64,000 nucleotides of DNA from Escherichia coli (GTDB lineage Bacteria > Pseudomonadota > Gammaproteobacteria > Enterobacterales > Enterobacteriaceae), in the NCBI RefSeq assembly GCF_045037415.1, contig NZ_CP173438.1; one strand, given 5' to 3'. Position 1 is the first letter of the stretch, and every line of letters begins with the position of its first letter. This document shows, one piece after another, positions 10,871-14,262 of this stretch. A program made the translations under genes and the position numbers. The notes below the pieces were generated by a model that worked only from the letters and a program-made list of their open reading frames with translations, did no database searches and was not told the DNA's origin.

Positions 10871-10963
10871 TTTCTGGTGGGCAGAAAGCCGTCGCCCGTA
10901 CTCATCAAACATACCAAAACCTGGCGCTGACGCCGGGTTTACTGGCATGAAGGGAAAATCATT

Positions 10964-12214
10964 ATGGATATAATGAGAAGTGTTGTGGGGATGGTGGTAT
11001 TGCTGGCAATTGCCTTTGTGTTGTCGGTAAATAAAAAGAGCATCAGCTTGCGCACGGTTGGGGCTGCGCTGCTGCTGCAAATTGCCATTGGTGGCATCAT
11101 GCTCTATTTTCCCCCGGGAAAATGGGCAGTAGAGCAGGCGGCATTAGGCGTCCATAAAGTGATGTCCTACAGTGACGCAGGAAGTGCCTTTATTTTTGGT
11201 TCGCTGGTCGGTCCCAAAATGGATGTTCTGTTTGACGGTGCGGGCTTTATCTTCGCCTTTCGCGTACTCCCGGCGATTATTTTCGTTACCGCGCTTATCA
11301 GCTTGCTGTACTACATTGGCGTAATGGGGCTGCTGATTCGTATTCTTGGCAGTATTTTTCAGAAAGCCCTCAACATCAGCAAAATCGAATCTTTTGTCGC
11401 AGTCACCACTATCTTCCTCGGGCAAAATGAGATCCCGGCGATCGTTAAACCTTTTATTGATCGCATGAATCGCAACGAGCTATTTACGGCTATTTGTAGC
11501 GGCATGGCGTCTATTGCGGGTTCGATGATGATTGGCTATGCCGGAATGGGCGTGCCGATTGACTATTTGTTAGCCGCTTCGCTGATGGCTATTCCTGGCG
11601 GTATCCTGTTTGCACGTATTCTTAGTCCGGCGACGGAACCTTCGCAAGTTACGTTTGAAAATCTGTCGTTTAGCGAAACACCGCCAAAAAGCATTATTGA
11701 AGCTGCGGCGAACGGTGCAATGACCGGGCTGAAAATCGCCGCCGGTGTGGCGACGGTGGTAATGGCATTTGTGGCGATCATTGCGCTGATCAACGGCATT
11801 ATTGGTGGAGTTGGCGGCTGGTTTGGTTTTGCCAATGTCTCTCTGGAAAGCATTTTCGGCTATGTGCTGGCCCCGTTGGCATGGATTATGGGGGTGGACT
11901 GGAGTGATGCAAATCTTGCCGGAAGTTTGATTGGGCAGAAATTGGCGATTAATGAGTTTGTTGCTTATCTCAATTTCTCGCCCTATCTGCAAACGAGCGG
12001 CACGCTGGATGTCAAGACCATTGCCATTATCTCGTTCGCCCTCTGTGGGTTTGCTAACTTTGGTTCTATCGGTGTTGTCGTTGGAGCGTTTTCGGCTATT
12101 TCGCCAAAACGCGCGCCGGAAATCGCCCAGCTTGGTTTACGGGCGCTGGCGGCGGCGACGCTTTCCAACCTGATGAGCGCGACCATTGCCGGGTTCTTTA
12201 TTGGTTTAGCTTGA
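10964..12214 (+). CDS. psuT: NupC-family nucleoside (pseudouridine) transporter
   Basis: 416-aa polytopic membrane protein of concentrative nucleoside transporter type. Confidence 0.8.
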   Translation: MDIMRSVVGMVVLLAIAFVLSVNKKSISLRTVGAALLLQIAIGGIMLYFPPGKWAVEQAALGVHKVMSYSDAGSAFIFGSLVGPKMDVLFDGAGFIFAFRVLPAIIFVTALISLLYYIGVMGLLIRILGSIFQKALNISKIESFVAVTTIFLGQNEIPAIVKPFIDRMNRNELFTAICSGMASIAGSMMIGYAGMGVPIDYLLAASLMAIPGGILFARILSPATEPSQVTFENLSFSETPPKSIIEAAANGAMTGLKIAAGVATVVMAFVAIIALINGIIGGVGGWFGFANVSLESIFGYVLAPLAWIMGVDWSDANLAGSLIGQKLAINEFVAYLNFSPYLQTSGTLDVKTIAIISFALCGFANFGSIGVVVGAFSAISPKRAPEIAQLGLRALAAATLSNLMSATIAGFFIGLA

Positions 12215-12221
12215 GTTTCAT

Positions 12222-12257
12222 TGCCGGATGTACGCCTTATTAAGCGTTGCATCCGGC
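12222..12257. terminator. REP-like hairpin between convergent psuT and yeiL
   Basis: gccggatgtacgccttattaagcgttgcatccggc, long dyad between two convergent stop codons. Confidence 0.5.
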
Positions 12258-12280
12258 AATCGCACTATTGCCAATAATTT

Positions 12281-12940
12281 TTACTGCATCATCCCGGAGA
12301 ATTTATTCTCCGGGTCCATCTCCAGCGCCAGTCCTGACAACTGCTTTCTGTTTTTAATGAGATACCCTTTCTTGCTTTTAATTAATAAACCGTCATTAAT
12401 GAATTGCGCGAGAACATATAAAAGATGTCGATAAGAAACGCCTAAATACTCTGCCGCTTGCGTATGCTTTTCGTGATAAAGATCACCTTCCTGCGAGAGT
12501 AATATAAAAGCTGCCAGGCGATTCACTAACGGAAATGATTGATTCTGAGTTAAAGAAACAATATTACGATAATTTTTATGACTTAAGGTGACGCAGAGTT
12601 TTCGTAAAAATAGCGTGTCGTTTAATAACAGCGGGCGGTAATGCTTCATAGGGAGCGCAAGGCACCAACACTCTTCAATAGCCTGCACTGCACGCGGTTC
12701 ATGGTCTTTGTCGATTAACTCAATCTCGCCAATAAAACAGGGCGCGGCAAAGAAATCGATCAGCGACACGCGACCATTAGCAAGCGTGACGTAAAGCCTG
12801 GCGCGGCCTCGCGTCAGGTAAAACAGCCAGGACGGCTGTTGCCCTTCCTGCACAATGTAGTCACGCGCTAAAAAATGAAACAGCCGCGTATCGGCTGAAA
12901 CATCCGTTGAAAAGCAATCCTTAAACGCAGATTCACTCAT
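12281..12940 (-). CDS. yeiL: CRP/FNR-family transcriptional regulator
   Basis: Track ORF trimmed to [10 protein letters not shown] (219 aa); cNMP-binding-like N-terminus and C-terminal HTH ([15 protein letters not shown]). Confidence 0.75.
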
Positions 12941-13108
12941 CAATTGCTGCTTAAGATCATTATTGTGGATTTCTTTCACGATGTTTATCCGCTATGAGAT
13001 TTCTCATATTTAGCATACGTACGCTGTTGTTAAGATTCAATCATCGGCCAGGTCGAATTTTCTTTGCTGTAGAAACAATAACGCAACTGGAAACAGAGGA
13101 AATAAACA

Positions 13109-14050
13109 ATGGAAAAGAGAAAAATTATTCTGGATTGTGATCCGGGTCATGATGATGCTATTGCTATAATGATGGCGGCGAAACATCCTGCGATTGATTT
13201 ATTAGGTATCACCATTGTAGCGGGTAATCAAACCCTCGATAAAACATTAATTAATGGCCTGAATGTTTGCCAGAAACTGGAGATTAATGTTCCGGTTTAT
13301 GCGGGGATGCCGCAGCCCATTATGCGTCAACAAATTGTTGCCGATAATATTCACGGTGAAACCGGACTGGATGGCCCGGTATTCGAGCCGCTGACCCGCC
13401 AGGCAGAAAACACTCATGCGGTGAAATATATCATCGATACCCTTATGGCAAGCGATGGCGATATCACTCTGGTGCCGGTTGGTCCGTTGTCAAACATCGC
13501 GGTGGCAATGCGTATGCAACCCGCGATCCTGCCGAAAATCCGTGAAATTGTTCTGATGGGCGGCGCTTATGGTACTGGCAACTTCACCCCATCTGCTGAG
13601 TTCAATATCTTTGCTGACCCGGAAGCCGCACGCGTGGTGTTCACCTCCGGCGTTCCATTAGTGATGATGGGCCTCGATCTTACCAACCAGACCGTTTGCA
13701 CCCCGGACGTGATTGCTCGGATGGAAAGGGCTGGCGGCCCTGCGGGAGAGCTGTTCAGCGACATCATGAACTTCACTCTCAAAACGCAGTTCGAAAACTA
13801 CGGCCTGGCTGGCGGCCCGGTGCACGACGCCACCTGCATCGGTTATTTGATTAACCCTGATGGCATTAAAACCCAGGAGATGTACGTCGAAGTGGACGTT
13901 AACAGTGGCCCTTGCTATGGGCGTACCGTCTGCGACGAGTTGGGCGTTCTTGGCAAGCCCGCCAATACCAAAGTCGGCATCACTATTGATACAGACTGGT
14001 TCTGGGGATTAGTCGAAGAGTGCGTACGCGGCTACATCAAAACCCATTAA
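13109..14050 (+). CDS. rihB: Pyrimidine-specific ribonucleoside hydrolase
   Basis: 313 aa; N-terminal DCDPGHDD nucleoside-hydrolase signature. Confidence 0.85.
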
Positions 14051-14149
14051 GTGTTGATAACAAGCCGGGTCAGTATCGCAAGATGCAGGCCCGGCTATTT
14101 ATGATGGGCAGAGAGCCGTCGCCCAAAATGACATGAAGAGATAATAACT

Positions 14150-14262
14150 ATGGATGTCATGAGAAGTGTTCTGGGAATGGTGGTATTGCTGGCTATTGCG
14201 TTTTTGCTGTCAGTAACCTGATGAGTGCTACTATTGCAGGATTCTTTATTGGTTTAGCGTAG
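14150..14262 (+). pseudogene. nupX: Internal-deletion remnant of NupC-family transporter gene nupX
   Basis: ATG-initiated MDVMRSVLGMVVLLAIAFLLSV closely parallels the psuT N-terminus (MDIMRSVVGMVVLLAIAFVLSV), then joins out of frame to a segment encoding NLMSATIAGFFIGLA*, matching the psuT C-terminus (SNLMSATIAGFFIGLA*); ~1.1 kb of coding sequence is missing. Confidence 0.65.

Follow-up and report, generated by a model that had tools for sequence, protein, structure and literature searches.

A conserved leader hairpin upstream of the nucleoside transporter genes psuT and nupX in Escherichia coli and related Enterobacteriaceae, most likely an RNA-level control element

In this work, we analyzed a 64,000-nucleotide stretch of the Escherichia coli contig NZ_CP173438.1 (NCBI RefSeq assembly GCF_045037415.1), hereafter the window, focusing on a short motif that precedes two nucleoside transporter genes, psuT and a remnant of nupX, and that constitutes the core of a small hairpin designated hp1. 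The genes of the region are arranged in the order fruA-psuK-psuG-psuT-yeiL-rihB-nupX-yeiI-nfo-yeiH-yeiE-lysP, in the orientation opposite to that of K-12. Gene names were taken from the RefSeq annotation of E. coli loci with identical or near-identical sequence (strain SK1144, identical, and one K-12-like strain); the open reading frames (ORFs) of the window coincide with this annotation, and their Pfam domains are concordant. The genes around the two motif copies are the following:

9003-9944, plus strand: psuK, PfkB-family pseudouridine kinase (RefSeq annotation, Pfam).
9932-10870, plus strand: psuG, pseudouridine-5'-phosphate glycosidase, the cistron upstream of hp1 and psuT (ORF, RefSeq, Pfam).
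10964-12214, plus strand: psuT, NupC-family (CNT) nucleoside transporter of 416 amino acids (ORF, RefSeq, Pfam).
12281-12979, minus strand: yeiL, CRP/FNR-family protein.
13109-14050, plus strand: rihB, pyrimidine ribonucleoside hydrolase, the cistron upstream of hp1 and nupX (ORF, RefSeq, Pfam).
14150-14262, plus strand: nupX remnant of 113 nucleotides (nt), the first 67 nt of nupX joined to its last 46 nt (annotated partial pseudogene).
14318-15406, minus strand: yeiI, winged helix-turn-helix (HTH) domain plus PfkB kinase, convergent with nupX (RefSeq, Pfam).

The motif is present as two near-identical 19-mers, GGGCAGAAAGCCGTCGCCC at 10879-10897 before psuT and GGGCAGAGAGCCGTCGCCC at 14106-14124 before the nupX remnant. 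A preliminary description of this DNA had reported the pair; both copies are real and the second was located exactly, the first having been placed 6 nt too far to the right (10885-10903), and the ATG of the nupX remnant lies at 14150, not 14151. A pattern search of the window with GGGCAGARAGCCGTCGCCC, allowing up to 3 mismatches, retrieved exactly two matches, with 0.04 expected by chance and none of 100 shuffles giving two or more. The psuT-side copy is found 8 nt past the psuG stop codon and 66 nt ahead of the psuT ATG (10964), and the nupX-side copy 55 nt past the rihB stop codon and 25 nt ahead of the ATG of the remnant. Alignment of the two upstream regions, one of the checks proposed in the preliminary description, returned a shared leader with homology ending at the motif: the likeness starts 9 nt upstream of the 19-mer (ATTTcTGgT before psuT, ATTTaTGaT before nupX), is interrupted after it by a 41-nt segment present only before psuT, and resumes at CATGAAG, from where it runs into the coding sequence. 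In a K-12-like strain, both 19-mers are identical and belong to a 28-nt block with one base different. Further copies, also proposed as a check, were searched with a 41-nt query; the motif was found in 5424 of 5426 complete E. coli genomes, at a median of 2 and a maximum of 3 places per genome, and no third copy is present in the window. The motif is specific to the two transporter leaders and is not a dispersed repeat.

The 19-mer corresponds to the core of hp1, a hairpin with a stem of 5-6 base pairs (NNGGGC/GCCCNN) and an 11-nt loop (AGNNNGCSGUC), whose two copies in the window are:

10877-10899, plus strand: hp1, psuT copy; stem 10877-10882 (GUGGGC) with 10894-10899 (GCCCGU), loop 10883-10893 (AGAAAGCCGUC).
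14105-14125, plus strand: hp1, nupX copy; stem 14105-14109 (UGGGC) with 14121-14125 (GCCCA), loop 14110-14120 (AGAGAGCCGUC).

With the covariance model R1, these copies scored 36.7 bits (psuT) and 34.8 bits (nupX), and no other match was obtained in the window. For comparison, we assembled transporter relatives from one genome per species, together with contigs encoding homologues from a protein search. In this set, hp1 was identified upstream of 19 psuT- or nupX-type genes from at least 11 enterobacterial genera, among them Escherichia, Citrobacter, Leclercia, Enterobacter, Klebsiella, Kluyvera, Buttiauxella, Superficieibacter and Entomohabitans, including E. albertii, three Citrobacter species, two Enterobacter lineages, Klebsiella michiganensis and K. 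spallanzanii. The motif is thus present upstream of the orthologues in related species, where the preliminary description had named its absence as the result that would speak against its proposal.

The 19 instances align without internal gaps, and the loop is 11 nt long in every one of them, with an invariant GU near its 3' end and two further near-invariant G positions. Standard pairs account for 95.6% of the sequence-by-pair cells of the stem, and compensatory changes are displayed by three of its six pairs (C-G/U-A/U.G; G-C/A-U; A-U/G-C/G.U), bearing out the option of an RNA structure that had been raised alongside that of a regulatory site. None of 500 column shuffles reached the observed covariation score or percentage paired, pairing fell to 33-54% in a control with the 3' partner slid by 1-3 columns, and RNAalifold independently gave the hp1 helix from both the short alignment and 11 whole leaders. 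Furthermore, five cells are G.U pairs, which would be mismatches in duplex DNA; both outer pairs of the psuT copy are of this kind in the window strain (G.U and U.G). Among E. coli sequences, the 5' arm has AC as its outer bases in K-12, GC in a plasmid-borne copy and GT in the window (as in E. albertii), with the partner fixed as GT; each step from AC to GC to GT keeps pairing only by G.U wobble, which favours sense-strand RNA over duplex DNA or the antisense strand. These comparisons support the view that hp1 is under selection as a base-paired element of the sense strand and is linked to the transporter cistron.

The plasmid-borne copy belongs to pCUPF07A (IncHI-type, E. coli; NZ_CP182175.1, 18604-25431), which carries psuK-psuG-psuT-yeiL and a truncated rihB adjoining IS903B and ISVsa5 transposase genes. 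Its hp1 stem, GCGGGC/GCCCGT, is intermediate between the K-12 and window alleles.

Other pairings around the motif were considered and discarded. An alternative mini-hairpin, GGC-AGAAA-GCC, is broken by a C12-to-G change in Citrobacter and others; upstream pairings such as UUUCUG with CAGAAA in E. coli (window 10871-10888), or ACUGCCCA with UGGGCAGU in Buttiauxella (locus L083, ~2924-2950), are not conserved across genera; and inspection of the leader alignments revealed no conserved complement for a loop-to-linker pseudoknot.

Across genera, hp1 always belongs to the sense strand and comes shortly before the transporter gene, whichever of psuG and rihB precedes it. The distance from the psuG stop codon to hp1 is 6-12 nt in psuT-type leaders, and that from the rihB stop codon is 16 nt in one Enterobacter contig. 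The sequence between the rihB stop codon and hp1 cannot be aligned between genera, and neither can the upstream sequence be aligned between psuG and rihB contexts; hp1 therefore marks the start of the conservation linked to the transporter. The hairpin was absent before a 72%-identical transporter of Klebsiella sp. BIGb0407, and a covariance model search did not find it near ~70 more distant CNT loci.

Regarding gene context, genomes with a single transporter display either the arrangement psuK-psuG-psuT-yeiI (Citrobacter, K. michiganensis, Enterobacter FS01) or yeiL-rihB-nupX alone (Buttiauxella, K. spallanzanii, Superficieibacter), the latter with hp1 present and yeiI absent from the locus; yeiI adjoins the transporter in many genera, not in all. 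Both modules occur together in E. coli and some other loci, in reverse order in one locus type. The order of the blocks psuK-psuG-psuT, yeiL-rihB-nupX and yeiI varies between genera (loci L005 and L083-L089), and one Enterobacter hormaechei-like contig carries yeiL-rihB-nupX-psuK-psuG-psuT. These arrangements suggest that the two modules may move independently.

The two transporter genes of the K-12-like strain share 79% nucleotide and 88% amino acid identity. As had been pointed out, their first codons are alike (58 of the first 67 coding bases, 87%), which is not exceptional given the 79% of the whole genes. At four-fold degenerate sites, the difference is 0.53 between E. coli psuT and nupX and 0.52 between E. 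coli and Citrobacter psuT, and it ranges from 0.45 to 0.64 in every inter-genus and paralogue comparison. Silent sites are close to saturation, which makes the E. coli paralogues at least as old as the genus-level splits; under the four-fold rate, the single difference in the 28-nt motif region of the K-12 paralogues has P ~3e-8. By sequence comparison, psuT and nupX are a paralogous pair that has kept its ancestral 5' leader, with homology stopping at hp1, in agreement with the earlier proposal of a leader element retained after transporter duplication: one homologous leader is found in both lineages.

The further proposal of a joint duplication of kinase and transporter is not supported. The sequence GGVGRNIAHNLALLG, which had been offered in its favour, is indeed found in both PsuK and YeiI. 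However, the kinases are only 41% identical compared with 88% for the transporters, and YeiI carries an additional N-terminal winged-helix domain, indicating that the two pairs do not derive from one event. In addition, the gene orders are not collinear, psuK being co-directional with psuT and two genes upstream of it, and yeiI convergent with nupX; and species with a single transporter already carry both kinases flanking it. The comparison instead suggests two modules, psuK-psuG-psuT and yeiL-rihB-nupX, whose last genes encode transporters of one clade and carry the same leader. In a protein neighbor-joining tree, rihB-linked transporters stand apart from psuG-linked ones, with bootstrap values of 70% (codon positions 1+2) and ~3% (all sites), too low to order the duplication events.

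Alignment of the leaders of the 19 genes revealed one homologous architecture, consisting of hp1, a G-poor linker, a second hairpin (hp2) with an A-tract and UUU(U) flanks, the Shine-Dalgarno region, and AUCAUU-AUG. In the psuT leader of the window, the elements downstream of hp1 are:

10900-10918, plus strand: single-stranded, C/A-rich linker with no G (ACUCAUCAAACAUACCAAA); its core AUCA-NNN-AUACC is conserved across genera (leader alignment).
10919-10940, plus strand: hp2, a terminator-like hairpin with an A-tract, stem CCUGGCG/CGCCGGG and loop CUGA, followed by UUU (RNAalifold, single-sequence folds).
10950-10966, plus strand: psuT start region, with Shine-Dalgarno AAGGGA, conserved AUCAUU and the start codon at 10964 (leader alignment).

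Within hp2, GCCGGGUUU is invariant in 11 leaders, and the loops, of 4-6 nt, are not conserved in sequence. This hairpin looks like a weak intrinsic terminator of psuT-type leaders, as it displays the A-tract, GC stem and U-tract layout of intrinsic terminators and attenuators; unlike these, it has a U-tract of only 3-4 U, too short for a consensus terminator scan to call it, and no antiterminator pairing was found. When the 5' arm of hp1 was blocked, hp2 remained intact in six of six leaders, showing hp1 to be thermodynamically independent of hp2. A terminator-antiterminator switch between both hairpins was discarded, as no alternative pairing arose in those six leaders.

The full leader is present in all psuT-type genes and in the nupX-type gene of K. 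spallanzanii. Other nupX-type leaders have deletions of 20 nt (Entomohabitans, Superficieibacter), 31 nt (Buttiauxella, Kluyvera, Enterobacter and one E. coli strain) or 43 nt (most E. coli, including the window, where the counterpart of the 10900-10918 linker is lost). Through these nested deletions, hp2 is lost along with some or all of the linker, and hp1 is untouched in each of them. The length of the nupX leader is polymorphic in E. coli: strain SCPM-O-B-8794 has 12 extra nt after hp1 (ATAACGGGATCAGACC) that are absent in K-12 and the window (L003 2938-3006, L001 4560-4616).

One further hairpin lies in the window between rihB and the nupX copy of hp1:

14064-14102, plus strand: hairpin 3' of rihB (GCCGGGUCAGUAUCGCAAGAUGCAGGCCCGGC), followed by UAUUUAU; very stable fold, without conservation between genera.

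It is a probable terminator or stabiliser of the distal end of rihB, as judged from its predicted fold. Should it end the rihB transcript, nupX of E. coli would receive little read-through, if any, and would lack an obvious promoter.

Comparison with known RNA classes did not provide an identity for hp1. An Rfam 15 cmscan of 8000-16000 (E<=10) returned nothing overlapping it, the only nearby match being isrJ at 10906-10940, which covers hp2 with 19.6 bits (gathering score 37, E=5), and no gathering-level Rfam matches were obtained in 20 loci of distant CNT transporter genes. Hp1 is not an intrinsic terminator, since neither copy is followed by a U-tract (GUACUC after the psuT copy, AAAAUG after the nupX copy) or called by the terminator scan. 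The same median of 2 and maximum of 3 places in 5424 E. coli genomes, without further covariance-model matches in the window, rule out a repetitive extragenic palindromic (REP) sequence or bacterial interspersed mosaic element (BIME). As in the lambda N/boxB-nut sites, the BglG/SacY ribonucleic antiterminator (RAT) sites and the ANTAR targets, hp1 is a small leader stem-loop in which loop nucleotides are conserved, and in psuT-type leaders a terminator-like hairpin comes after it; unlike them, its loop has 11 nt in 19 of 19 instances and is neither a GNRA-like pentaloop on a 5-bp stem, as expected of a nut site, nor one of two tandem hexaloops with A at position 1 and G at position 4, as expected of an ANTAR-target RNA, in which the second hairpin overlaps a terminator (hp2 loops being 4-6 nt). 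No conserved boxA-like partner was found in the leaders. Hp1 also differs from protein-recognised leader hairpins in that it neither overlaps nor competes with the terminator stem, and persists where the terminator is deleted.

Other candidate identities were rejected as well. For a leader peptide or read-through of PsuG, the codons GGC-AGA-AAG-CCG-TCG-CCC share the psuG frame in E. coli, Citrobacter and Leclercia but not in K. michiganensis or in either Enterobacter locus; a start codon is not conserved, and the loop changes would be non-synonymous. A short upstream ORF that opens with CATGAAG is missing from Leclercia, K. michiganensis and K. spallanzanii, the GG-to-GC spacing was wrong on inspection for a sigma-54 promoter, and a PyrR-like CAGAGAG loop is found only in the nupX allele of the window, the three bases concerned being variable elsewhere.

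With the integration of these findings, hp1 is most likely an RNA-level control element located before psuT and nupX, for which we found no earlier description. We propose, with a probability of roughly 0.55, that it acts as a cis-acting leader hairpin whose loop is recognised by a trans-acting factor, tuning the transporter message. Hp1 is the first and most persistent module of the psuT/nupX 5' leader and would be present as sense-strand RNA, following a catabolic gene (psuG or rihB) and preceding the transporter gene. Its conserved loop of fixed length would be recognised by a protein or an RNA acting in trans, which would tune in cis how the distal transporter message is processed, stabilised or translated; in psuT-type leaders, hp2 lies downstream and would probably limit read-through from psuKG by partial termination. 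A trans-acting recognition is favoured because the fixed loop length and the conserved loop bases exceed the needs of a generic stabilising hairpin. Transcription of the hp1 region in vivo, the trans-acting partner and the direction of the effect on expression are what we infer from these sequence comparisons. Between hp1 and the start codon lie 25 to ~67 nt depending on the leader, a variability that speaks against a direct masking of the ribosome-binding site by hp1.

Several points, this variable distance among them, weigh against our proposal. Single-sequence folding is unremarkable, with z-scores of -0.1 for the psuT copy of the window and -2.1 for the nupX copy, and the minimum-energy fold of the psuT copy uses a shifted pairing. 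The independent compensatory events amount to only ~6-8, and the sequences are related, so that the shuffle control overstates significance. With ordinary folding energies and related sequences, the case for hp1 rests on the comparative evidence. Moreover, hp1 is very small, and a purely structural role as a generic hairpin is possible. In the E. coli nupX leader, the loop bases AAA and C12 and the ATTT before the hairpin match E. coli psuT and not other nupX-type leaders, and the identity of the K-12 copies may be partly due to gene conversion; since hp1 is kept in single-transporter genera, conversion does not explain its conservation there. Lastly, the searchable published supplements on 3' ends and on RNA interaction by ligation and sequencing (RIL-seq) have no entry at the psuT or nupX leaders; in one of them, a single Rho-dependent 3' end each is listed antisense to nupX and to yeiL, which is uninformative on the leaders.

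A more specific variant, which we regard as unlikely, is that hp1 is the site of a dedicated RNA-binding regulator or a minimal ligand-responsive element that would couple the expression of PsuT and NupX to the availability of pyrimidine nucleosides or pseudouridine. As in very small riboswitch aptamers such as preQ1-I, hp1 combines a short hairpin and conserved loop bases with a place in the leader of a nucleoside- or nucleobase-related transporter gene; in contrast to preQ1-I, it shows neither a conserved pseudoknot partner on inspection of the alignments nor an Rfam match, and with 19-23 nt and one helix it is below any validated aptamer. If dedicated regulation or ligand sensing proved true, hp1 would represent a new class of enterobacterial cis-regulatory RNA.

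It is rather improbable that hp1 serves the upstream cistron by stabilising the psuKG or rihB mRNA, either by blocking 3'-to-5' exonucleases or by signalling processing, so that more enzyme than transporter would be made. Intercistronic hairpins are well established, as exemplified by the REP sequence between malE and malF, and this precedent, the GC-rich nature of hp1 and its location 6-12 nt from the psuG stop codon are compatible with such a role; further, the A/U-rich, G-poor single-stranded linker after hp1 would suit RNase E, and hp2 could cap the downstream fragment. Like the malE-malF REP and the ompA 5' stem-loop, hp1 is a GC-rich hairpin between co-directional catabolic and transport cistrons. 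However, unlike REP, it has two copies per genome instead of hundreds, a loop conserved in sequence and length, which an exonuclease barrier would not need, and a linkage to the downstream gene: it is inherited with the transporter and occurs 6 to 63 nt downstream of either psuG or rihB, which are unrelated. In E. coli, moreover, rihB already has a much stronger hairpin of its own.

Ranked below the former, and likewise improbable, is that hp1 constitutes the 5'-terminal stem-loop of a transporter-specific transcript, with a weak promoter, possibly sigma-S dependent, from which transcription would start at the stem or immediately before it, and that it shields this transcript from 5'-end-dependent decay. 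The 5' hairpin of ompA protects its mRNA from such decay. In line with this arrangement, hp1 marks the 5' boundary of the transporter-linked conservation, the stem is preceded, at 3-7 nt, by AT-rich hexamers (TAATTT, TATTTC, ATAAAA, GAATTT) in several genera, and nupX would need its own promoter given the strong terminator-like hairpin after E. coli rihB. In addition, a peak of the RpoS holoenzyme in systematic evolution of ligands by exponential enrichment (SELEX) was reported inside psuG, upstream of psuT (Shimada et al., 2017; PMC5493296), although its coordinate system and resolution do not place it at hp1. Against a terminal position, a consensus scan found no sigma-70-type promoter beside either copy, no -35/-10 elements are conserved across genera, and hp1 follows the rihB stop codon after only 16 nt in one Enterobacter contig, and that of psuG after only 6-12 nt in psuT-type leaders; neither would a protective role require a conserved 11-nt loop.

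Lower still we place the possibility that the motif is a double-stranded DNA operator, with arms CGGGC-N11-GCCCG, for a transcription factor common to both genes. The preliminary description had also considered a regulatory site, and the motif displays dyad symmetry; a candidate factor would be the winged-helix domain of YeiI, as the gene of this HTH-bearing kinase adjoins the transporter in many genomes. The N-terminus of YeiI is a winged HTH (Pfam HTH_24, E=1e-11) fused to the PfkB kinase, and the protein may be a combined regulator and kinase. Nevertheless, the arms covary, the two K-12 sites differing (C-G in one, T-A in the other) with each self-complementary; the five G.U cells (T/G) would be mismatches in duplex DNA; the conserved loop is asymmetric; the scan found no consensus promoter adjacent to the motif; and Buttiauxella, K. 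spallanzanii and Superficieibacter have hp1 without yeiI at the locus.

Finally, a functionless relic of the duplicated leader, kept alike in E. coli by gene conversion, is very improbable: the E. coli copies, only 3.2 kb apart, do resemble each other in loop bases and the upstream ATTT beyond other nupX-type leaders, but hp1 is also kept where a single transporter precludes conversion (Citrobacter, K. michiganensis, Buttiauxella), four-fold sites approach saturation in all comparisons between these lineages, the stem substitutions are compensatory, and three separate leader deletions all spare the hairpin.

As a small conserved leader hairpin, hp1 is a familiar kind of object, and among E. 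coli leader elements it is an uncatalogued motif, for which we found neither a published description nor an Rfam match. Its scope is narrow, involving two genes per genome, and the kind of object is not surprising. Kept before both genes for as long as the enterobacterial genera have diverged, it offers a mutable handle on the regulator and the inducing conditions of psuT and nupX. The transporters themselves are poorly understood; in the only direct study that we found, NupX moved uridine and cytidine inefficiently, and no detectable transport of uridine, cytidine or xanthosine was observed for PsuT (PMC11241209). Hp1 is also of some practical interest for pseudouridine production strains, which are engineered around psuK, psuG and psuT.

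The nupX remnant of the window arose when 1138 bp were deleted from within the gene, leaving a junction with AA microhomology, and its reading frame is lost, with 23 codons followed by TGA; the hp1 leader before it is still intact. This deletion allele was found in 970 of 5426 complete E. coli genomes and is a common lineage polymorphism.

REP-like extragenic palindromes are located 3' of psuT (12222-12288) and 3' of the nupX remnant (14276-14321), with weak, sub-threshold matches to Rfam naRNA4. The divergent yeiL-rihB intergenic region contains a perfect 7-2-7 palindrome, TATGAGA-TT-TCTCATA, at 12993-13008, and a second, ATGATTCAATCAT-like palindrome at ~13032-13044. Both are kept in Buttiauxella, Kluyvera, K. 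spallanzanii, Superficieibacter and Enterobacter, and probably serve as operators, perhaps of the CRP/FNR-family protein YeiL.

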